DNA of 64,000 bases from assembly GCA_964501905.1 (NCBI GenBank), contig CAZCTW010000002.1:67821-131820 (forward strand), written 5' to 3'. Below, one piece after another: positions 1,973-56,577 of the stretch (the first letter of the stretch is position 1; every line of letters begins with the position of its first letter). The DNA is from an uncultured Thermofilaceae archaeon (GTDB lineage Archaea > Thermoproteota > Thermoprotei > Thermofilales > B69-G16). The translations under genes and the position numbers were made by a program. The notes beneath the pieces were generated by a model that saw only the letters and a list, made by a program, of their open reading frames with translations, had not been told where the DNA came from and made no database searches.

Positions 1973-4378
1973 TTAATTAGTTTTAATTTTTCCCTCTTCG
2001 ATAGATATAACTTTGGCTCCCTCGGCGTCCACATCCACGTGGGTTATCAGTATTATCTGTTTAAACTGATCTCTCAGAGTTTTAGTTAACAAATCTACGA
2101 TGTTTTTCCTCCTATTACTGTCGGATGAGGAGAGAGGCTCATCTAGAAATAGAAATCTGGGATAGGTTTGCTTGGTCTCAGGCAGAAGTGAAAGTATAAA
2201 AGCTAGCCTCATGGCTAAGAGTAGCTGATCGACCATGCCCCCGCTGTAGATGTCCTTCGGCACAAATTTTCCGGCTTCCGAGTCAAGTACCTCTATATTG
2301 TAGTTTGAGTCAAGCCGGACGGCTTTATACCTACCACCAGTTATTATAGATATTATATGGTTCATATTGTTCTCTATCGCTGGTTGAAACCTTTCTCTAA
2401 TGCTCTTAGCTACCTGCCTTAAGCTAGTTATGGCTATTTCCTGTGCTTCTACGATTTTCTCCAGCTCTTTAATTTCTTTCTTCAATTTCTCGTATTCCTC
2501 CTCTACGCCCTCGTTTTTCTTTATCCTCTCTTTCAGACGTTCTATCTGAAGCTCGAGCTGCCGTATGGTGCCCTTTAGCGCGGCTACTCTAGCGGTTAGG
2601 AGGTTATACTCTGCCTCAACGCTTCGATATAACTCCTCACTGTACGATACTCTATCTGGTAGTTCCGGCAGAGATATACTGTTTACCTCTTTTTCGAGAA
2701 CAGACACTTCCTCCTCTTTTTTCTTTATCTTCTCGATAGTCTCTGCGCGCAGTTTCTCTAATTCGTATATCTCTACGCTGAGGCGAGAAATTCTACTCTT
2801 TAAATTTTTGATTCGCTCTTCAGAAGACAATATTTTATTTTCTATGGATATCTTCTCCCCCCTTGCCTCCTCAACTCTTTTAGAGACTCCTTCCAAGAAC
2901 TCGTACAGAGTATTCCAGGACTCCGGCTTATATTTCTCCGGTATCGAAGCTTTAATCTCCTCCAGCTCTTCCTCTAATCCTTTAGCCTGGTTTTCGATTA
3001 TTTGGAGTTCTTTACGTTTTTTTTCTAAATCTTTTTCTCGCTCTCTCATTAAGGAGAGTAAGCCGCTATACTTTCTAATTTCATCTTTAACTAATAGAGA
3101 TCTCGACGTCAATTTAGATTTAAGATGAGAAATGGCGAGATAGTAGATTACCGCTAGCAGTAGCCCTGTCGCGTAGAGTATGGGTATAAATAAGCCTAGT
3201 AGCGATGTAGAGAGTAAGGCTAGGAGTACGGGGAGGGATATTTTGGTTTTAGATATTTTCTGGTCTAGTTCTTTGTCCTCTTCGATTAAGTTGTTTAGCC
3301 TTTTTTCGTCGACTTTACTCTTTAACTCCTCTATGACCGACTCTAGCTCCGATATCTTAGCTTTTATATCTTTCATTCTCTCTTTTAGGCTATTTAACCG
3401 AGCTAGCTTGTCTTTAGATTCTCCAACGGCTTTTTGAGTTGATTCTAAGTCAATATATTCTGAAAGCTTTTTCTTGTATTCTTTTAGCTTTACTTCTTCT
3501 CTTTCAAGTTCCTCCTTTAAGTTTATTTTTTCTTTCTCTTTGGCGCGCAGCTGTTCTTCTAGCTTGCTCAGAGACTCTTTTAGAGCCCTTAACAAGCTTT
3601 TCATTCCTTCAATTTTAGTCTCTAGATTTCTCTTTTTGATTAAGGCATCCCTATACTCTTTCAAGAGTCTATAAAGGCTTTCTTTTTCCTGGAGCTTCGC
3701 TACCTCCTCTTCGTATACCTTCCTTTTATTTTTAAGCTCTAAACTTTTTTCTCTCAAATCTTCAAGGTCTCGCTTATAGTTCTCTAGCCTCTTTTTAACT
3801 TCCTCTAAAGTCCTCTTTTTAAATTCCAATTCTCTTTTTTTCTCTCTACGCTCTAAAGATAATTTTTCGATAGCTTTGTTGTAGCTTTCTAAACCGAGGA
3901 GAGCATTAATTATCTTCTCCCTCTCCTGCCCCCTCATCTCTATTAGCTTATCAAGCTCTTTTTGAGCTACGACATTCGTCACCAAAATCTCGTTTAGAGA
4001 AAGTCCGCCTAGCAAGCTTTGGATGAACTCGTTAGTCCTCTTCACCGTAGCCGCCTTCCTGATTAAGCCGCCAGTTGGAGTTATCTCGGAGATGCGGGCT
4101 TCAGATTCTCTCCCTCTCCTGATAATTCTCTCTACTTGGTAACGCCTTCCGTCTACTGAGAATATCAATTTAACTTTCGCCACACTAGCTCTATGGTTTA
4201 CGGCTAAGTCTTTAGTGCCTCTAAGCATCCTGCCGAAAAAAGCATAAAGGATTGCCTCGAGAATTGTGGATTTCCCTGCTTCGTTAGGCCCTTTAATTAT
4301 CAACATACCTTTAGGAAATTCTATAGTTAAGTCTAGCTTTCTAAAATTTCTAGCTTCAAGCTTCTCGAGAACTACCAA
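1973..4378 (-). CDS. rad50: Rad50-type SMC-like ATPase (DSB repair); atypical, with no zinc hook and a hydrophobic hairpin at the coiled-coil apex
   Basis: Walker A GPNEAGKST, long K/E/L heptad coiled coils, signature-like YSGGMVDQ, Walker B FLFLDEP and H-loop ILITHV. The start overlaps the mre11 stop (4372-4378). The protein has no Cys anywhere. Confidence 0.85.
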   Translation of the reverse strand: MVVLEKLEARNFRKLDLTIEFPKGMLIIKGPNEAGKSTILEAILYAFFGRMLRGTKDLAVNHRASVAKVKLIFSVDGRRYQVERIIRRGRESEARISEITPTGGLIRKAATVKRTNEFIQSLLGGLSLNEILVTNVVAQKELDKLIEMRGQEREKIINALLGLESYNKAIEKLSLERREKKRELEFKKRTLEEVKKRLENYKRDLEDLREKSLELKNKRKVYEEEVAKLQEKESLYRLLKEYRDALIKKRNLETKIEGMKSLLRALKESLSKLEEQLRAKEKEKINLKEELEREEVKLKEYKKKLSEYIDLESTQKAVGESKDKLARLNSLKERMKDIKAKISELESVIEELKSKVDEKRLNNLIEEDKELDQKISKTKISLPVLLALLSTSLLGLFIPILYATGLLLAVIYYLAISHLKSKLTSRSLLVKDEIRKYSGLLSLMREREKDLEKKRKELQIIENQAKGLEEELEEIKASIPEKYKPESWNTLYEFLEGVSKRVEEARGEKISIENKILSSEERIKNLKSRISRLSVEIYELEKLRAETIEKIKKKEEEVSVLEKEVNSISLPELPDRVSYSEELYRSVEAEYNLLTARVAALKGTIRQLELQIERLKERIKKNEGVEEEYEKLKKEIKELEKIVEAQEIAITSLRQVAKSIRERFQPAIENNMNHIISIITGGRYKAVRLDSNYNIEVLDSEAGKFVPKDIYSGGMVDQLLLAMRLAFILSLLPETKQTYPRFLFLDEPLSSSDSNRRKNIVDLLTKTLRDQFKQIILITHVDVDAEGAKVISIEEGKIKTN

Positions 4379-5538
4379 GCTCCCGCCTCCTCTAACCTCT
4401 CTAACCCCATTTTCTTAGCTTTCTCGATAATCTCCCTTCTTTGAGGATTTTCCTCTTTTTCTATAAGTTCATCCATATATTTCGAAAAAGCCTGTAGAGG
4501 CGAGAGCTTAATGCCAACCTCTATTTTCTCCATTTTATACTCAAGCTCGCTGTCATCTACTACGACAATAAAGAAGTGGTCGATTAGCCTGCGAAAAACT
4601 TCATCCCTCCTATACCTGGTCAGCACTTGTAGGGGGACTTTACCGCCTATCCTAAGTCTTAGGATAAGTTCTTTATCCCTGTATTTTAATGCATAAGAGA
4701 CTATATCGCTTATAGGAGATCTCGACTCGGGACTAAGCTCATACTTTAGAGTTTTCATAGGTCTTGTGGGAACTTCTATAAACCTCCTCTTAACTCCTTC
4801 TTCGCCCAGTTCAACCCATAGGAAGCCCTTCTTTTCATCGCCCTCCTCTAGGAAACTTCTTCTCTCCGTACTCCCCGGATAGGCTATATACGTCCTTTCT
4901 CTACGCGCTTCCTGAAACCTATGTATATGCCCCGCTGCGACGTAATCTATGCCCTTCGGTATATTCGCTATCCTAACTAAAGCCTCTCTGCCATAGCTAG
5001 CGGATTTAAAACCTTCTATAGGATAGTGTAGCATGGCTATGTTCAAATCACCCTCTACAGGAGGCTTGCTACGGGCTAGCGGATCCTCACCTTCTCTAAG
5101 CTCAAAGTTATAGGTTATCCCTGATACGCAGACATCTAAATCTCCGATTTTCAAGTGTTCAACTTGGAATTCCCTAGTTGAGGAGAAATACGTTACATAG
5201 CCGGATGCCGCTAACTCGTCTAGAGGGGATGCTCCTTCCTCTACTGAACGCGGAGTATCGTGGTGTCCCCCTATAACGAAGATCTTTATTCCTAAGCTGT
5301 GTAGCTTTCGGAAGTACTTTAGTAACTGTACTCTAGGGGGGTTTCTAGGGTTAACTCTGTCGTATAAATCTCCGGAGATTAACATAATATCGGGCTTATG
5401 CTCAACTGCGTAGTCTAATATCCGCTTAAAAGCCCTCCAGAAATCAGCCCTCCTCTCCATTATTTTCGGATAGTACATAGGAACGGAGGGGTCTAGGTGG
5501 TTATCAGCTGTATGAATTATCTTAACTGACAAGATCAC
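4372..5538 (-). CDS. mre11: Mre11 nuclease (calcineurin-like phosphoesterase)
   Basis: Phosphoesterase motifs are HTADNHLD, GDLYD, GGHHD, MLHYP and GHIH. It lies in an operon between herA and rad50 with overlapping stop/start codons. Confidence 0.9.
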   Translation of the reverse strand: MILSVKIIHTADNHLDPSVPMYYPKIMERRADFWRAFKRILDYAVEHKPDIMLISGDLYDRVNPRNPPRVQLLKYFRKLHSLGIKIFVIGGHHDTPRSVEEGASPLDELAASGYVTYFSSTREFQVEHLKIGDLDVCVSGITYNFELREGEDPLARSKPPVEGDLNIAMLHYPIEGFKSASYGREALVRIANIPKGIDYVAAGHIHRFQEARRERTYIAYPGSTERRSFLEEGDEKKGFLWVELGEEGVKRRFIEVPTRPMKTLKYELSPESRSPISDIVSYALKYRDKELILRLRIGGKVPLQVLTRYRRDEVFRRLIDHFFIVVVDDSELEYKMEKIEVGIKLSPLQAFSKYMDELIEKEENPQRREIIEKAKKMGLERLEEAGAW

Positions 5539-7142
5539 ACCTCAGACCAAATAGTACCTTCCCGCGCCACCACTAGCTCCTGTTCTCTCCCCAACTCCTC
5601 CTCTAAACCGGCTTCCTCCATCGCCGCTTTAAGCTTCTCAATCACGTCTATATCGGCGCCGCCCTCCCTTGTCCTCCTCTTCCTAATCTTAACCATAACA
5701 GGGACTTTAGTTACCTCGCCTACGATCACAGCTTCGCCCACGTTTAGCCCCGGTAGATCCCTGAGTAAATCCTCGCTCAACCGCTCACTCGACTTGATTA
5801 TCGCCTCTTGATCCGTAGGATTTGAAACTTTCAATATTATCTGGCTATTACACTGGCTCAGGGCATCCGGGTCTATTTTAGATGGCCTCTGGCTTATCAG
5901 AGTCATGAAAACACCGAACTTCCTGCCTTCGGCTGCTATAGTGTTTATGATTTCCCTAGATAGTCTTCTTACCTCTTTCTTGGGTATGAACTTATGAGCT
6001 TCCTCGACGAAGATGAAAACCGGGTACCTGAACTTTTGAGTGGAAACTTGGTGGAAAACTTCCGTCAATATCCTATAGGTTATGTAGTCCATGCTAGAGT
6101 CGTTAAGTCCTGAGAGGTCAATGACGGAGACTTGGGCAGGCTTTAGCATTTCGCTTACAGGAGTAGTCGCCGCTCCGAAGACCTTAAGCCGTTTCAACTT
6201 TCTAACGTATTTAAGCGCCCTCAGGGCGTGCGGATTTCTGGAAGAAAGCTCCTCTATCTTTTCTATTAAATGTTCGGAAGTGTAGGCGTCCCCCATATTC
6301 TTTCTTAGCCCTTTAACAGCCTCGGTTACAGCATTTCTTATATTAGACCATTTTTCCGGAATATTCAATATTTCACATATTTCTTCTCCAGTTAAATCAG
6401 AAAATCTAATAGTATAGTCGTATACGTTATCTAGCTCGCTTTTAGAGTACCTACCTGTGCTGTTAGGGTTTCGGAAAACTTTAATTCTATCAGCGTACTC
6501 GTACCTGCTCCCGTCCGGCTTCCTGCTCAAAAAGACATAGTCGGCATGGGGGTCTATAACTATCACAGTGGCGCCTTTCTGTAATAATTCCTCCACCAGC
6601 ACGCCCACCGTGTAGGATTTTCCGGCACCGGTCTGAGCCAGTATGGCTAAGTGTCTTTTAAACCCATTTACGGATATGAAGACGGGTATTTTAGGCCTTG
6701 AGATCAAGTAGCCTATATGCAATCCTTCTTCCTTAGAGTATGAGAAAAACTCCGCTACTAGTTCGTCGGGGGCTAAGTATACCTCGTTACCCGGGTATAT
6801 AGCCCTTCTGGGCATTAGTATTTCCTTCTTGCCTTCCGTAGCTATCATGTATCCTAGCGTCCTAGCTTTACATATTACATTTACATCATCTATCCCCGCT
6901 CTGTATATCCTTTCGAGCGCCTCGAGGTCTAGGTCCTCCCTATACGATAGGCTACGCGAAACTACGCCTACGACTTGTGCGAGGACTTGCACTCGTTCTA
7001 CGCGATCCCCTGCTAGCTCCTTCGAATACACCGTTACGTATTCGTACTTCGGCGGGTGGCTTTCCTTATCGGCTACGAAGAGGAACTCCGTAGGAGATGC
7101 TTCCTCTACGATTCTCCCAATGGGCTTAGGGGTAGCGTACAC
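5535..7142 (-). CDS. herA: HerA hexameric DNA translocase/helicase (FtsK-HerA superfamily)
   Basis: N-terminal HAS-barrel-like region (PIGRIVEEASPTEFLFV), Walker A AQTGAGKSYTVG and Walker B VFIFVEEAHKF. It overlaps nurA and mre11. Confidence 0.9.
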   Translation of the reverse strand: MYATPKPIGRIVEEASPTEFLFVADKESHPPKYEYVTVYSKELAGDRVERVQVLAQVVGVVSRSLSYREDLDLEALERIYRAGIDDVNVICKARTLGYMIATEGKKEILMPRRAIYPGNEVYLAPDELVAEFFSYSKEEGLHIGYLISRPKIPVFISVNGFKRHLAILAQTGAGKSYTVGVLVEELLQKGATVIVIDPHADYVFLSRKPDGSRYEYADRIKVFRNPNSTGRYSKSELDNVYDYTIRFSDLTGEEICEILNIPEKWSNIRNAVTEAVKGLRKNMGDAYTSEHLIEKIEELSSRNPHALRALKYVRKLKRLKVFGAATTPVSEMLKPAQVSVIDLSGLNDSSMDYITYRILTEVFHQVSTQKFRYPVFIFVEEAHKFIPKKEVRRLSREIINTIAAEGRKFGVFMTLISQRPSKIDPDALSQCNSQIILKVSNPTDQEAIIKSSERLSEDLLRDLPGLNVGEAVIVGEVTKVPVMVKIRKRRTREGGADIDVIEKLKAAMEEAGLEEELGREQELVVAREGTIWSEV

Positions 7143-8448
7143 GCCTCACATCCCTCGTATGCTCTATTAAAAAGTCGAGTTCTTTGCTTAATATAGGCTC
7201 GTAAATTTTTAAAATATCGGACATCCTAAGCTTTACCTTAGAATCTACGTCTTCCATTAAGACGTTATAGTGGCGGGGGCCGGCGTATAGCTGGTTTAAC
7301 AAGGATAGTAGCTGCTCTAGCCTATTTTCAAAGCCCTCTAGTATCGCAAACCTTGAAGAAGTTTTAACGTTATCGCCTAGGATCCACGCCGGCGCGTCGA
7401 CCCTAATTGGTATATCCCCCTTCTTCGGGAGGTAGTAGAACATGACAATATCGGGATATTGGAGAATTCTAGGCAGAATTTTAAGCGCTTTTTTATAGAC
7501 TACGCTTTCCGCCTCAGCTATAGCGTTTGAAAAACTCCTCTCAATATACTTCCTCAATTCCCCCTTCTCGATAGCGTTGACTAGAGAATCCAGCGCTGGA
7601 GCCGGTGTTTTCAATAACGCAGGAACAGTATAGCCAGGTTTATCTATAAGCCTAGTTATCAACTGTATATCCGGCCGTGGAGCTAGGGCTTCCCGAAGCA
7701 TTTCCTTCACCCATGGAGGCACTCCTTTAATGCTCTTGAGCTTTTCCAGCGATTGCTTGGGATTTTTCCAGAGAGCATTCCAAGCTTCTATAATTTGGCA
7801 GGAGATCTCTCCCCCTAGCGAACTTTCTCCGATTTTCTTGGTGAGCTCCTCGAAAAGCAATACCCTCTTATAGATGCGCGATTTAGAGTCCTTACTTAAC
7901 CCGATAACCAATACGTTCTTCTCCTGTGCTTCCTCGAAGAGCTCGCTGTAAACTCTTATATAATCTAACATGAAGCCTTGGTATCCGGGTATTTCGGAGT
8001 CCTTTGGCAGGTGCGCCATTCTTCCATAGAGAGAGCCATCAATGAGTATTACACTGTTATCTCCACTCGATATCTTCCTTAGACACTTCAAAGCCAATAT
8101 GTGCTCTAGGTGTTCTCTCATCCGGCTCCTGAACACGGTTAACCCCACGTTATCAGTCGGATAGAAGGGAGTTATCTCCAGCTCTCTCTCCTCTATCCCT
8201 CTATTTGATAGAGCTAATGCTCTACAAATATGGATAACCACGCCTTCCTTGTGCTCTATCACTCCGTCGCTACTATCCACCGCTATGACCTCTCCCTTGA
8301 ACTCCTCAGTCTGAGGCAGAAGTCTCCAGTACTTCCGAAATAGGTCCTGATAGAGTTCCAGACTATCTCGCGATAGGAGCAGAAGTTTCTCCAGAGATTC
8401 CCTTTTGTCTCTTAGTTTCTCAAGGTATAGATCAAGGAATCTAGGCAT
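7126..8448 (-). CDS. nurA: NurA 5'-3' nuclease
   Basis: NurA-like acidic motifs VIAVDSSDG and ILIDGSLYGR. It is the first gene of the herA-mre11-rad50 operon and overlaps herA by 17 nt. Confidence 0.8.
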   Translation of the reverse strand: MPRFLDLYLEKLRDKRESLEKLLLLSRDSLELYQDLFRKYWRLLPQTEEFKGEVIAVDSSDGVIEHKEGVVIHICRALALSNRGIEERELEITPFYPTDNVGLTVFRSRMREHLEHILALKCLRKISSGDNSVILIDGSLYGRMAHLPKDSEIPGYQGFMLDYIRVYSELFEEAQEKNVLVIGLSKDSKSRIYKRVLLFEELTKKIGESSLGGEISCQIIEAWNALWKNPKQSLEKLKSIKGVPPWVKEMLREALAPRPDIQLITRLIDKPGYTVPALLKTPAPALDSLVNAIEKGELRKYIERSFSNAIAEAESVVYKKALKILPRILQYPDIVMFYYLPKKGDIPIRVDAPAWILGDNVKTSSRFAILEGFENRLEQLLSLLNQLYAGPRHYNVLMEDVDSKVKLRMSDILKIYEPILSKELDFLIEHTRDVRRVRYP

Positions 8449-20697: not shown

Positions 20698-21534
20698 TTA
20701 TCTTCCTACAATTTCAATTAATGTTACTTCTGGTGGACAAAAGATACGAACTGGTAGCATTGTTGTACCTAACCCCCTGTTGACGTAAAGAAGCGTATTT
20801 TCGATTTTGAAAAATCCGGAAGAATATTTTCTATACTCCCTACTCACCGGAAGGAATAATGGGCCATAGCCAGGTACGACTACCTGTCCCCCGTGAGTAT
20901 GTCCTGCTAGTACGAGGTGTACATCCCGCTCTGCCGCTTCCATAACTATCTCAGGCGAGTGGGCTAAAAGTATCACGAAACAGTCTGACGTTATGCCTGC
21001 TAAGGCTTTCTCGAGATTAGCTCTACCAGTATGAGGGTCATCGACTCCCACTATGTACAAGCACGCTCCATCCATCTCTATTTTGCCATGAGAGTTAATT
21101 AAAACAGTTACGCCTAAGGATTCTAGTTCGTGTTTTAAATCGTTTAAATCGGCTCCGCTCCAGTGATCCCAATTTCCGAAAACTACGTAAGTCTTCTCTT
21201 TCTGTGAAAGCTTTTTCATAAATTCGTATAATTCATCGAGGTTCTCCTTGTTATCTATTAAATCTCCAGTTACGACTACGATATCTGGGTTTAATCTCTC
21301 GATAACGCTTAACGCCAGTCTTTCCCTATTCCCTATCCCGTGAAGGTGTAGATCCGATAATTGTACTATCTTCAACTTTAGCCCCTTAGGGATTTTCTCA
21401 GTTTCCACAACTATTTTCTCGACTTTTACCGAGTAAGGTTCCACCAGGAAAGCGTACAGAACGAGACCAATCAATATTACCAATAAAAGTCCTAGAATTC
21501 TTTTAAGTAAAAAAGGGTTATTTCTTCTCTTCAA
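20698..21534 (-). CDS. Membrane-anchored metallophosphoesterase (YkuE-like)
   Basis: N-terminal TM helix, then the motifs SDLHLH, GDLID, GNWDHW and GHTHGGQ. It overlaps the upstream SPFH gene by 17 nt. Confidence 0.85.
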   Translation of the reverse strand: MKRRNNPFLLKRILGLLLVILIGLVLYAFLVEPYSVKVEKIVVETEKIPKGLKLKIVQLSDLHLHGIGNRERLALSVIERLNPDIVVVTGDLIDNKENLDELYEFMKKLSQKEKTYVVFGNWDHWSGADLNDLKHELESLGVTVLINSHGKIEMDGACLYIVGVDDPHTGRANLEKALAGITSDCFVILLAHSPEIVMEAAERDVHLVLAGHTHGGQVVVPGYGPLFLPVSREYRKYSSGFFKIENTLLYVNRGLGTTMLPVRIFCPPEVTLIEIVGR

Positions 21535-22411
21535 ATCCTAATATCCTCCTGAAAGGCTTCATCATTTCCATAATCTCCATGGGCAGTATGATCTTAGTTG
21601 ACTGACTAGCCGCTATATCCTTCCAAGCTTCTAGGTACTGCAGAAGCAGCGTTTTATCGTCTAATGCTTTAGCCGCTTCGTTTATCTTAGATAACGCTAT
21701 AGCCACTCCCTCAGCTTTCAGTATAGCCGCCTGTTTTTCTCCTTCGGCTTTTAGTATCGCGGCCTGTTTTTCTCCTTCAGCTACTCTTATCGCGGATTCC
21801 TTCTTGCCGTCGGCTTCCAGAATCATAGCCCTTCTATTACGCTCGGCGCTCATCTGCCTGATCATAGCTGCTTGCACTTCTCTGGGAGGTAGTATCTCTC
21901 TTATCTCAACCGCTGTTACTTTCACTCCCCACCTCTCGGTGACTTCATCTAGCTTAGTTCTCAGTATGGAGTTTATTTTTTCCCTTTGAGCTAAGACTTC
22001 ATCTAGCGTTAAGTCTCCAACTACTGCCCTTAAAGTCGTAGTTGCTATGCCAGTAGCCGCTCCTTCGAAGTTCGAGACGGAGACAACGGTTTTCTCGGGG
22101 TCGAAAACCTTGAAGTATACGAGAAAATCGATATCTACTGGCGCATTATCCTTGGTGATACAGGTTTGTCTCTCAACTTCTATGTATCTCTCCCTTAAGT
22201 CAACTTTTATTCCTTGGTCTATGATCGGTATTAGGAATACTGGCCCTGGACCTTTAACTCCTATTACCCTGCCTAACCTAAGCACTACTATACGCTCGAA
22301 TTGAGGAATTATTTTAAGAGAAGTTGCCAAGAAAGCGGCGAAGAGCACCAATAGGAATACGATTAGAATTGCCTCAGCTATCATTGATCTGTTAATTTCT
22401 CCTACATTCAT
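21518..22411 (-). CDS. SPFH/Band 7 (stomatin/prohibitin-like) membrane protein
   Basis: N-terminal TM helix and an SPFH core (IVPQFERIVVLRLGR...). The C-terminal coiled coil has AEGEKQAAILK repeats. Confidence 0.9.
   Translation of the reverse strand: MNVGEINRSMIAEAILIVFLLVLFAAFLATSLKIIPQFERIVVLRLGRVIGVKGPGPVFLIPIIDQGIKVDLRERYIEVERQTCITKDNAPVDIDFLVYFKVFDPEKTVVSVSNFEGAATGIATTTLRAVVGDLTLDEVLAQREKINSILRTKLDEVTERWGVKVTAVEIREILPPREVQAAMIRQMSAERNRRAMILEADGKKESAIRVAEGEKQAAILKAEGEKQAAILKAEGVAIALSKINEAAKALDDKTLLLQYLEAWKDIAASQSTKIILPMEIMEMMKPFRRILGFEEKK
21714..21779 (-). repeat. Near-perfect 33-nt tandem duplication inside the SPFH gene, encoding AEGEKQAAILK twice; degenerate further copies extend to about 21845
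   Basis: gctttcagtatagccgcctgtttttctccttcg is followed by gcttttagtatcgcggcctgtttttctccttca. The repeat is in frame and coding. Confidence 0.7.
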
Positions 22412-53403: not shown

Positions 53404-56400
53404 TTAGTTTTGATTCCCTGTAGTATGCGAATGCTTTAAAGCTAAATGAAGCTTGTATATGGTTTCTAGGTTCTCCTCTATGTACTTGCCCAGTTTTTTC
53501 TGTAGATAACGTGACGAAGCAATCCATTTCGAATAAGGTTTATCACGTATGTACCTGCGCGTATTCTCCCACTCCATCCTTACATCCTGTAGGTGTATGG
53601 TCCTGTTCCACCCCAACGCGCTCTCAACCTCCTCTAGCGGAAGTCTATCCACCTCGAAGATTTTCACCGCCTCCTCCTTCACGTCGACGACCTTTCCCAT
53701 ATGTTTTAATCCTATCAGTAAAGCGGCGAGCGATTTCAACTCGTTATTCATCAAAGTTCTGGTTAAATCGTTTAAGCCGTAAACCGCTAAGGTAAAGTCT
53801 TTATCTAGAAACTCTCTAATCCTATCTTCGACCTCTCTAACCTCCCTCCCGATGATGTAAAACTCTTTAAAGGATTCTCGAACTAAAAACTTCTCGCCAT
53901 CGTACAAGCCAACCGCTATAAGCTCCACCCTTTCCTCCTCATCCAAAGGCAGGCTTAGGGCGTCCAGCGCGGCTACCTTTAAGGCTCTCGACGGCTTAGG
54001 CACATATATCTCCTTATCTCTAATTTTCAAAGCTATCTTCTCTCTAAGTAGCAGGTAGCTTAATGCCTTCAAAGCGGCTTGTTTAGCTATGTCCCACCTC
54101 AATCCGCTGGCGGCGAGCTCGAGGTGGGCGTCCTCGTCTACCGCCTGTAATAGTACTTCAGTCAACTCGTCGGGCTCGAAGCTTTCCACTTTCTTCATGA
54201 CGTTGAGCCAGTCTAGTTTTTCAAGGAGCCCGGCGCTTTCAGGCTCGTGGAGTATTATCAACTTCTTCTCGCCAACTTTGGCTATATCGTACATTATGGT
54301 CTCGAAGGCTATCCGGTACTCGACCCTGAGGACGACCATAACTAGCGCAAGCCCTATACGCAACCACGTGAGATCCTCGTCGGGCTCTAACTCGACAGAT
54401 ATCCCGTACGTGTAATCGTTGTATTTGCCATAGGTTCCCGTGGGGACTTCGATGACTTTTAAATCCCTCAGCACTAGAGTTTTCCCATCCACGGGTATTA
54501 GCTTGCTCTTTCTCCCCCGCAGTATCCAGTGTACTCTGTTCGGTATTTTAGTGTAGATACCAAAGCCTCTTAACGGAGGATGGACGACGCATATAACCTC
54601 CGAGTGCAATCTACCCGCTACGTAATCTCCGAAAATGTTCGGCTCCTCCCCCCATCTGTATTTAGCTTTCCTATACTCTTCATAGGCGTAGGCTAATGCG
54701 TCGTTCCCCCAGATAACCCGCTCGCTCAGAGGCTCCTCAACCACAGCTGTGACAACTCTCCCCGACTTGCCCCCAAGTCTGTGAGATGTCACTATGGCAT
54801 CTTCAGTGTAGTCTATACAACCGGGCTGAAATTTCTCGACTAAGTCGCAGAAGGATATATCCTCCAGGTACTGTTGCTCGTCATATCTAGCTTTCACTCT
54901 TTTAATGCCGAACGGGGGTGAGAACTCGTAGAAGTTTAAGTTAGTCCACGCGCTCTTCCCCCTCCTAGTCAGTTCCCCCTCTTTAACTAAACCAAGCTTC
55001 TCCAAGAACTTATACTCCTCCTTAGACAAGTGCTTCCTCATCGTGGGAGATACGAACTTATAGAGGGATTCGAAGAGCAGGGAGTACTTGTTATCGGGGT
55101 TTACGATCGCGTGCTCTAGAGGTAGCTCTAGCCAAGATTTAAAGACGGATACTCCCCGCGTCAACAATTCTCTATCCCATCTAAGCACGGGGAAGATAAT
55201 GCTTTCGGTAAATTCTATCTCCTTCCTCCGACCCTTCCTCCCCTCCCTCTGGTGGTACTCTCTAACATCATCAGGCAGACCTACGTGGACGATACGCACG
55301 ACAGTCCCTATATCTATCCCTTGAGCAAGTGTTCTAGGAGTGAAAATCAATTTTACACGCCCCTCTCTAGCTCCCTGCTCAATAAGCTCTCGTAGAGCTT
55401 TAGACACTAAGTGGTGGTGAGTTGCTATCATATCCGCGCGGTTTCGGGGCAGCCTATACTTCAATTTCCTAGCGAGTTCCTCGGCTTTAGCTATACTCCT
55501 CGTGAATACGAGCGTTACGCCCTCATCGTCTAAGTATTTCTCCAAGATTTCGGTGGGGTCGAGCTCTACTCTAGGAACTTCTAATCCCAAGGCTTCGAGA
55601 ACTTCTAGTACTTTGTAGAAGTTCTCCTTGAATGAGTTGAAATCCTCCAGCGAGTCGATGATATCCTTCCCTACTCCCGGAGCCGAAGATAGGATGTCTC
55701 TATACTTTCTAACTATATCCCATATACGCCTGAGGTTTTTACCTAGGATTATATAGGTTTTGTTAGGTACTTTGAAAGCTTTCCCGTAGATAATAGCGGT
55801 TTCCTTACCGTTTATCTCCGTTAAGAAAGCCCCTAACTCCTTTGGATTCCCTAGAGTCGCGGTTAGAATAGCTATCTGAAAGTTAACCGGGGATAATACC
55901 CTCAATATCTTAATCATCGATAACAGTAAAGCTATCTCCCTCGGAGAGTAGAAATCTAGTTCATCTACAACTAATAGTTGGAATTTCGGTATAAGTTTGG
56001 ACAGTACGGCGTTTCTGCTACCTACGGCGTGCCTTTTGAGATCCATGAGGAGAAAAGCCGGGTTTGTTATCAGTATCTGTAAATTTCCTATGTAATCCCT
56101 AAGTCTGCTTCCCTTAACCCCCTTCCTGTAGAATTCCTCTCTTCTCTTGGCATCTATAACGTCGACTTGAATCCCCACGACACGGGCGTAACTCTTAATT
56201 CTATTGATTTGGTCGTTAGCAAGGGCTAGCGTCGGGTAAAGCACTAGAGCTTTTACGCCCTTCTTAATCGCGTAAATTAACCAAGCCTCTGTCTTGCCAG
56301 AGCCTGTTCCAGATCTAAGTATTACGTTTTTGCCGTTTAGCAGAGCCTTATATGCCTCGTACTGGTGCTTATAGAGTTTTTTACCTGCGAGCCTTCCAGC

Positions 56401-56577
56401 GTGTCCATCGGCTTTTTCGAATTCCGGGATTAAATCGCTGAAAGTGAGCTCGGCTAGATCGGGCTCTTCCCCTCTTTCTCCGAAGGCGTAGTAGTCGTAA
56501 CCTAGATTCTCCAGCACGGTTAAGCTATCTATAGGCACTTTTACACCGTAAGCTATTTCGCGTTGAGCGTTATTCAA
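53404..56577 (-). CDS. Large SF2 DEAD/DEAH-box helicase, YprA/MrfA/Hrq1-like core with a ~580-aa C-terminal region (DUF1998-like but lacking Cys)
   Basis: Motif I SGTGSGKTEAW, Ia LYPTLALANDQ, II VVDELD, III LTATL, V FTPRTLAQGIDIG and VI HQREGRKGRR. The tail contains the block YRIAFETIMYDI...ILHEPESAGLLEKL. Confidence 0.85.
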   Translation of the reverse strand: MNNAQREIAYGVKVPIDSLTVLENLGYDYYAFGERGEEPDLAELTFSDLIPEFEKADGHAGRLAGKKLYKHQYEAYKALLNGKNVILRSGTGSGKTEAWLIYAIKKGVKALVLYPTLALANDQINRIKSYARVVGIQVDVIDAKRREEFYRKGVKGSRLRDYIGNLQILITNPAFLLMDLKRHAVGSRNAVLSKLIPKFQLLVVDELDFYSPREIALLLSMIKILRVLSPVNFQIAILTATLGNPKELGAFLTEINGKETAIIYGKAFKVPNKTYIILGKNLRRIWDIVRKYRDILSSAPGVGKDIIDSLEDFNSFKENFYKVLEVLEALGLEVPRVELDPTEILEKYLDDEGVTLVFTRSIAKAEELARKLKYRLPRNRADMIATHHHLVSKALRELIEQGAREGRVKLIFTPRTLAQGIDIGTVVRIVHVGLPDDVREYHQREGRKGRRKEIEFTESIIFPVLRWDRELLTRGVSVFKSWLELPLEHAIVNPDNKYSLLFESLYKFVSPTMRKHLSKEEYKFLEKLGLVKEGELTRRGKSAWTNLNFYEFSPPFGIKRVKARYDEQQYLEDISFCDLVEKFQPGCIDYTEDAIVTSHRLGGKSGRVVTAVVEEPLSERVIWGNDALAYAYEEYRKAKYRWGEEPNIFGDYVAGRLHSEVICVVHPPLRGFGIYTKIPNRVHWILRGRKSKLIPVDGKTLVLRDLKVIEVPTGTYGKYNDYTYGISVELEPDEDLTWLRIGLALVMVVLRVEYRIAFETIMYDIAKVGEKKLIILHEPESAGLLEKLDWLNVMKKVESFEPDELTEVLLQAVDEDAHLELAASGLRWDIAKQAALKALSYLLLREKIALKIRDKEIYVPKPSRALKVAALDALSLPLDEEERVELIAVGLYDGEKFLVRESFKEFYIIGREVREVEDRIREFLDKDFTLAVYGLNDLTRTLMNNELKSLAALLIGLKHMGKVVDVKEEAVKIFEVDRLPLEEVESALGWNRTIHLQDVRMEWENTRRYIRDKPYSKWIASSRYLQKKLGKYIEENLETIYKLHLALKHSHTTGNQN

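Follow-up and report, generated by a model that had tools for sequence, protein, structure and literature searches.

To our knowledge, the zinc hook is regarded as universal in Rad50 and as one of its hallmarks, and it is taken to be essential for function wherever it has been tested. In the canonical archaeal Rad50 proteins (P. furiosus, M. jannaschii; 3qku, 3aux), an ABC ATPase head is split into N- and C-terminal halves, an antiparallel coiled coil runs between them and a CxxC motif forms the hook; the gene is coupled to an adjacent mre11 and has HerA and NurA as operon partners. A rad50-like gene that matches this description in its split head, its coiled coil, its coupling to mre11 and its operon partners, and whose best sequence and fold matches are of the same kind, lies in a 64,000-nucleotide stretch of DNA from an uncultured Thermofilaceae archaeon (contig CAZCTW010000002.1, positions 67,821 to 131,820; this whole 64-kb stretch is called the window below). 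It departs from the canonical proteins in having not one cysteine, in carrying a 40-residue charge-free hairpin instead of the CxxC zinc hook, and in scoring far below the equivalog cut-offs. We consider it probable (roughly 0.6) that the gene encodes the Rad50 of an end-resection operon in which the hook has been replaced by membrane-inserted hairpins that pair at the apex.

A hook-less Rad50 has a partial precedent in SbcE (YhaN) of B. subtilis, which resembles SbcC but has no CxxC. Its "unique central domain" is hydrophobic, includes a conserved proline and, when produced by itself, is completely insoluble; the authors of that work did not read this domain as membrane-spanning (PMC2811018). 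Its partner in double-strand-break repair and in transformation is the Mre11-like nuclease SbcF (YhaO), and SbcE gathers, in a ComK-dependent manner, at the pole bearing the DNA-uptake machinery (PMC2811018). It shares with the present protein a Rad50-like head, a long coiled coil, the lack of CxxC, a hydrophobic, proline-containing centre and a neighbouring gene for an Mre11/SbcD-like nuclease. However, B. subtilis has SbcE in addition to SbcC, and SbcE works without HerA and NurA, whereas the gene described here belongs to a nurA-herA-mre11 operon. The initial annotation of this DNA, made from the letters alone, knew of no characterised Rad50 of such design. That statement has to be amended, since SbcE with SbcF, studied genetically and cytologically, is a partial precedent; the hydrophobic-apex design is very widespread in bacteria and more general than that annotation assumed. 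For the archaeal version we found no published description: the full-text literature yielded none of a transmembrane, membrane-anchored or hook-less archaeal Rad50/SbcC, although a mention in doi 10.1093/nar/gkaa726 is possible. Two further systems are comparable in part. E. coli SbcCD (6s6v) is likewise a nuclease/ATPase pair of the Mre11-Rad50 type and needs its coiled coil for DNA-end sensing, but SbcC, unlike the Rad50 discussed here, has a zinc hook, is soluble and is without HerA and NurA. LmuB of the Lamassu systems also combines a Rad50-derived head with a coiled coil; in contrast, the present locus has no LmuA or LmuC and is a chromosomal housekeeping one.

The gene and the parts of its product that concern the apex have the following window coordinates:

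1973..4378, minus strand: rad50-like ATPase gene, 801 amino acids (aa), no cysteine, TTG start at 4378.
3122..3241, minus strand: apex hairpin, aa 380-419, a 40-residue charge-free helix-turn-helix in the place of the zinc hook.
3164..3196, minus strand: turn region of the hairpin, G395-G405 (GLFIPILYATG); G395, P399 and L401 are conserved in the subfamily and G405 is invariant (15 non-redundant members).
3242..3889, minus strand: ascending coiled-coil arm, aa 164-379 (216 aa); predicted helices 164-306, 311-355 and 358-377, with the predicted local distance difference test (pLDDT) mostly at 85-94.
2459..3121, minus strand: descending coiled-coil arm, aa 420-640 (221 aa); predicted helices 399-478, 491-565 and 581-621.

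Besides its want of cysteine, the protein has four histidines and one tryptophan in its 801 residues. The Pfam scan matched AAA_23, AAA_27 and SMC_N in it but not Rad50_zn_hook (PF04423). An AlphaFold2 (AF2) monomer model, built from an alignment of 25 family members (mean pLDDT 83), predicts a long antiparallel intramolecular coiled coil between the two halves of the Rad50 head. The two arms match in length (216 versus 221 aa), and the hairpin between them is therefore the apex. In the model the hairpin consists of a helix at 382-394, a turn at 395-398 and a second helix that starts at 399 and continues straight into the descending arm; the helical portions measure 13-21 residues.

The composition of the hairpin sets it apart from the rest of the protein. 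Asp, Glu, Lys and Arg make up 38% of all residues, yet aa 380-419 contain none of them. No other such run in the protein is as long, and in none of 20,000 shuffles of the sequence did the longest run attain 40 residues, its mean length being 12.7. On hydropathy scales coded by hand, the top Kyte-Doolittle 19-mer of the protein falls in the hairpin (2.44 at aa 393). The Eisenberg and Hessa-type figures are indicative only: every 18-mer with a mean Eisenberg hydrophobicity above 0.6 begins within aa 380-402; the two hairpin helices reach mean values of 0.65-0.67 with a hydrophobic moment of just 0.02-0.17, that is, they are apolar all round and not amphipathic, in contrast to coiled-coil segments with means of -0.2 to -0.7 and moments of 0.27-0.49; and the Hessa-type insertion energies of the hairpin add up to about 0 to -1.2 kcal/mol, while the median for the protein is +23.

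These traits recur in the relatives. The charge-free run has a family median of 42 residues, and the eight residues on either side of it are rich in Lys and Arg, with net charges of +2.1 and +1.8 as family averages. Within the hairpin most positions interchange apolar residues freely. In the closest subfamily only L388, L389, S392, G395, P399, L401, G405 and Y412 are kept, and these form a small-residue face together with a Pro/Gly turn; prolines stand at P383 and P399.

The replacement of the hook is real, lies at the hook position and is kept across a large clade that spans two domains of life. When the family was compared by hhalign with 15 hook-bearing Rad50/SbcC proteins (score 659, E 2e-77, 753 columns), the hairpin fell on the columns of the CPxC hook. 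All 64 homologues found at E <=2e-31, among them the Thermofilum adornatum "Rad50" WP_052886925.1, lack CxxC and possess a hydrophobic segment near the centre; in the full-length ones this segment lies at a relative position of 0.44-0.52. More distant matches have either a hook without a hydrophobic apex (Rad50/SbcC) or a hydrophobic apex without a hook. A profile search of 1.84 billion cluster representatives returned 3,557 at E <=1e-30, hook-bearing relatives included. The best 150 of these 3,557 comprise 116 full-length proteins, 114 of which have the hydrophobic apex and none a central CxxC. The hydrophobic apex thus occurs in no fewer than 114 clusters at 50% identity. Members that carry a taxon label belong to Thermofilum, Bathyarchaeia, Nitrososphaeria, metagenome-assembled genomes (MAGs) labelled Korarchaeota, and to Chloroflexota and Rubrobacter. 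When one genome per GTDB species was scanned, the matches listed included MAGs with the labels Thermofilaceae, Bathyarchaeia/Bathyarchaeota, Nitrososphaeria and Nitrososphaerales. In bacteria (Chloroflexota, Rubrobacter, Bacillota and further groups) most relatives show a central pair of hydrophobic helices, and most adjoin a gene like mre11 or sbcD.

Since the replacement is family-wide, the absence of the hook is not a local sequence error; the alignment of orthologues suggested in the initial annotation shows it to be lineage-wide. That annotation had rightly deduced from the missing cysteine that no zinc hook can exist. Its placing of the hairpin at the midpoint of the protein also holds, although the extent that it gave (aa 380-418, 3125-3241) has to be corrected to aa 380-419 (3122-3241).

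A frameshift, a misassembly or a fusion of open reading frames (ORFs) was considered as a source of the unusual apex, and the chance of such an artefact is practically nil. The ORF is uninterrupted, an identical protein (P0001) is known from another assembly, and homologues at 27-66% identity align through the hairpin, none of them with a hook.

The taxon labels of the family need care. Within the 90%-identity cluster of one member (P0020, 808 aa), one NCBI MAG bears the label Candidatus Njordarchaeia and a second one Candidatus Korarchaeota, which points to an inconsistency in MAG taxonomy or binning. Members also differ in length. Versions of 919-922 aa are found in Bathyarchaeia (loci L007, L008 and L012 of the relatives examined) and versions of 1030-1293 aa in Chloroflexota/Ktedonobacteria (L015-L021). 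In the Chloroflexota versions the hydrophobic pair lies at a relative position of 0.42-0.46, so that the arms look unequal or an extra domain inserted.

What the hairpin does is a separate matter. The initial annotation had offered either a membrane hairpin or a dimerisation apex; the composition is indeed of the membrane type, and it is on composition only that the choice between the two is left to depend. As far as the sequence goes, it speaks for a membrane-embedded hairpin whose two ends are cytoplasmic, because the segment is uniformly hydrophobic, is flanked by basic collars, tolerates substitution and has a Pro/Gly turn. The same segment could also be a greasy knob that works free of lipid, joining Rad50 arms, possibly those of several complexes, in the cytoplasm. 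We regard this as unlikely. Both helices are apolar on all sides, and a four-helix bundle made from them would leave a large apolar surface in water; anchors that face lipid typically have such Lys/Arg collars and let most of their positions drift freely; and the central domain of SbcE, taken by itself, is insoluble.

Several observations nevertheless count against insertion, and a number of these speak for a knob. The charge-free run is just 35-38 residues long in part of the subfamily, where Lys or Arg stands at position 383. The first helix of the model has 13 residues, which is short for two full crossings of a bilayer; by this model, a half-inserted (monotopic) hairpin or a non-membrane knob would fit equally well. 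The pLDDT falls to 67-79 within the hairpin. SbcE-YFP forms discrete mobile foci "on the nucleoid" and at the poles and gives no uniform membrane stain or outline (PMC2811018). A knob would also account for the conserved small-residue face S392/G395/G405, which suggests specific helix-helix packing. Finally, the hook serves dimerisation and, according to PMC6969161, other dimerisation modules can stand in for it.

A membrane-anchored Rad50 might operate as follows. The hairpin would insert into the cytoplasmic membrane with both ends on the cytoplasmic side, held by its Lys/Arg-rich flanks, and the Mre11-Rad50 head would hang below the membrane on two arms of ~215 residues, roughly 30 nm. Two hairpins could conceivably pair side by side in the membrane through the small-residue face S392/G395 and G405, a purely conjectural contact, and this pairing would supply the constitutive apex dimerisation that zinc gives canonical Rad50. 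Head engagement driven by ATP, DNA clamping and cleavage by Mre11 would proceed as in canonical Mre11-Rad50, with HerA-NurA carrying out long-range resection. DNA ends would then be processed at the cell periphery. One may speculate that this serves break repair in thin cells, or else DNA that enters through the envelope. The processing of entering DNA has been proposed for SbcE of B. subtilis in competence (PMC2811018). The zinc hook itself is described, in PMC6969161, as a constitutive dimerisation module that can be swapped for an SMC hinge; since the hook is exchangeable to that extent, it is mechanistically plausible that another module has taken its place.

Whichever way the hairpin works, a very large clade, which includes the Rad50 of a classical archaeal repair operon, manages without a zinc hook. 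This raises the question of whether apex dimerisation is the whole role of the hook and whether a membrane can substitute for it, and also of whether these archaea, and many bacteria with them, organise double-strand-break processing spatially at the envelope. The "unique central domain" of SbcE, long unexplained, gains a likely meaning. If the protein is a membrane-anchored and sole Rad50, Mre11-Rad50-HerA-NurA would recognise and resect DNA ends on the cytoplasmic face of the membrane; if the design also arose independently of SbcE, evolution would have hit on the exchange of hook for hairpin repeatedly, possibly in connection with DNA that crosses the envelope. A Rad50 that is naturally free of cysteine is also convenient for topology mapping and site-specific labelling.

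By its head, its arms and its partners, the protein reads as part of a functional Mre11-Rad50 within a HerA-NurA resection module. The statement in the initial annotation that the ATPase motifs are intact is borne out by the 25-member alignment, in which the following are invariant, as are Q139 and the H-loop residue H780:

4265..4291, minus strand: Walker A, GPNEAGKST (aa 30-38); G30, N32, E33, G35, K36, S37 and T38 invariant.
2225..2245, minus strand: ABC signature, SGGMVDQ (aa 712-718); S712, G713, G714, D717 and Q718 invariant.
2120..2155, minus strand: Walker B and D-loop, FLFLDEPLSSSD (aa 742-753); F742, L745, D746, E747, P748, L749, S751, S752 and D753 invariant.

The clade has a signature of its own in these motifs, NEAGKST in Walker A and LSSSD in the D-loop. 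By its sequence, with a split head that retains all catalytic motifs, a long coiled coil and mre11 alongside, the gene is a member of the Rad50/SbcC family of ABC ATPases. When the family profile was searched against the PDB, archaeal Rad50 heads came out on top (3aux, E 8e-37) and E. coli SbcC was weaker (E 1e-18); Foldseek with the AF2 model gave full-length Rad50 of C. thermophilum (7zr1) as its top match. Among the NCBIfam Rad50 equivalogs PRK03918 scored best, with 153 bits against a cut-off of 700, and the others reached 93-120 bits against 847-1087. The Pfam AAA_27 model (PF13514, YhaN-type N-terminal domain) was matched at 35.3 bits, with a cut-off of 22.

The relation to the YhaN type was followed further. 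An hhalign comparison with eight YhaN-type proteins scored 389 (E 8.5e-47), hairpin being aligned with hairpin, and the heads are 26% identical to those of hook-bearing Rad50 versus 23% to those of the YhaN type. A neighbour-joining tree of head domains (92 sequences, 340 columns, capped distances), to be taken as provisional given the simple method, supports the archaeal core at 96% bootstrap and joins it at 81% to a sister group of Chloroflexota and long Bathyarchaeia proteins, all with a hydrophobic apex. A split at 78% places this archaeal clade and its Chloroflexota sisters with hook-bearing Rad50/SbcC, away from the YhaN-like group. Because the YhaN-like heads fall on the other side of this split, the hydrophobic apex may have multiple origins; provisionally, this suggests that the change from hook to hydrophobic hairpin occurred more than once. 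The fullest form of the proposal, a membrane-anchored Mre11-Rad50 that is the sole Rad50 of a broad part of the Thermoproteota (Thermofilaceae, Bathyarchaeia, Nitrososphaeria and relatives), with hairpin pairing inside the membrane in place of the hook, and that arose independently of SbcE, is one that we hold tentatively and at somewhat less than even odds.

The operon consists of four overlapping minus-strand genes in the order nurA, herA, mre11 and rad50-like, as established from the ORF map and Pfam:

7126..8448, minus strand: nurA, 440 aa, gene 1 of the operon; Pfam NurA PF09376, E 9e-18; overlaps herA by 17 nt.
5535..7142, minus strand: herA, 535 aa, hexameric helicase of the HerA/FtsK type; Pfam DUF87/HerA central domain, E 4e-42.
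4372..5538, minus strand: mre11, 388 aa, metallophosphoesterase nuclease; Pfam Metallophos E 6e-17, top NCBIfam model Mre11_Sulfo.
4386..4392, minus strand: Shine-Dalgarno-like GAGGAGG, read from the sequence within the 3' end of mre11, 7 nt upstream of the rad50 TTG.

Like nurA and herA, herA and mre11 overlap each other. The TTG start of rad50 (4378-4376) sits over the final codons of mre11 and its TAG stop (4374-4372), an overlap of 7 nt, and is supported as a start by homologues that open with the same MVVLEKLE. The translational coupling to mre11 proposed in the initial annotation agrees with this overlap of start and stop and with the GAGGAGG element, and the membership of the gene in an operon with mre11, herA and nurA is upheld by Pfam, by the gene overlaps and by the same gene order in relatives. 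The operon is surrounded by housekeeping genes, namely those for a class II tRNA synthetase, a peptidase, SufBD, GlmS and ThiI.

The arrangement bears on the possibility that the protein is an accessory paralogue after the manner of SbcE, devoted to imported or foreign DNA, while a hook-bearing Rad50 with its own Mre11 resides elsewhere in the genome. B. subtilis indeed has both SbcC, with a hook, and SbcE, with a hydrophobic apex, their roles being partly separate. All four operon proteins score far below the NCBIfam equivalog cut-offs and are therefore divergent; the herA product, for instance, reaches 242 bits with helicase_HerA and 204 bits with HerA_Thermprot, both short of the cut-off. 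Five relative loci (L001, L003, L005, L006 and L011) have mre11 only, with no herA or nurA in the ~4.7-9 kb upstream of it. Yet we find such a division of labour rather doubtful in this organism. The gene belongs to a classical nurA-herA-mre11-rad50 operon, with translational coupling and in a housekeeping neighbourhood, and the arrangement recurs in Thermofilaceae and Bathyarchaeia. Among the matches listed, mre11 lies directly upstream in 12 of 14 archaeal relative loci (in L008 the contig stops directly before the gene). Of the loci listed, L002, L007, L009, L010, L012 and L014 have the complete nurA-herA-mre11 set, as does L081, a relative at 66% identity, again with housekeeping neighbours. 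The heads, moreover, are nearer to hook-type Rad50 than to YhaN, by hhalign (659 versus 389) as by the 78% split, and the Thermofilum-labelled proteins among the 120 listed matches are of the hydrophobic-apex type only. Nor is there a second SMC-like or rad50 gene in the 64-kb window, as judged by BLASTP of its 91 ORFs of at least 100 aa against five Rad50/SbcC/YhaN queries; the sole other match was a weak P-loop similarity in an ORF adjoining the SufBD gene. The Rad50 of the end-resection operon remains the better description of the gene.

An involvement in defence, with the operon acting as a Lamassu or SMC-like system against phages or plasmids and not in repair, is highly improbable. PADLOC does show a generic similarity, its LmuB model PDLC03859 scoring 134 bits and HerA models of the defence type 191 bits at most, and Rad50-like proteins have been recruited to defence (PMC12663957, PMC10586767). 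However, the repair-type HerA model scores higher (242 bits), the operon contains Mre11, HerA and NurA as partners and no effector of the LmuA/LmuC type, synteny with housekeeping genes is kept at the locus of the 66%-identical relative, and the ten proteins sampled include no neighbour typical of a defence island. HerA/Rad50 genes have been linked to archaeal DNA-import loci in Thermoproteales (PMC9905601); no link to such loci is visible in the 64-kb window.

The Mre11 partner has its nuclease motifs in DNH (aa 12-14), GDLYD (aa 56-60), GGHHD (aa 90-94) and GHIH (aa 203-206). The third of these (window 5257-5271) usually takes the form GNHD. The Asn-to-His change is also seen in the Mre11 partners at L001, L003, L005 and L009, while the motif stays GNHD or GNHE at the Thermofilaceae locus L002, at the long Bathyarchaeia loci L007 and L012 and in bacterial partners.

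The arms are not continuous in the AF2 model. They have paired breaks at 307-310 and 479-490, and a further one at 566-580, which holds a conserved motif:

2657..2671, minus strand: LPELP motif, aa 570-574, in the conserved break of the descending arm (aa 566-580); P571 and P574 near-invariant, non-helical in the AF2 model.

The LPxLP break could be a joint or a docking site. By distance along the arm it should roughly face a conserved patch around L239 (aa 235-243) and a dip in pLDDT in the ascending arm.

Scans of the window for Rfam families, tRNAs and tandem repeats gave nothing relevant to the Rad50 apex. A 33-bp tandem repeat of 2.3-2.7 copies (82-86% matches) lies at 21706-21795, inside the ORF 21518-22411. 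On the plus strand, long ORFs at 2565-3128 and 3180-3437 run antisense to rad50. Their abundance of Ser, Leu and Phe mirrors the Lys/Glu-rich codons of the coiled coil, and in all likelihood they do not represent genes. Elsewhere in the window, a 1057-aa ORF on the minus strand (53404-56577), with DEAD and Helicase_C domains, encodes a large superfamily-2 helicase of the Lhr/Hel308 kind.

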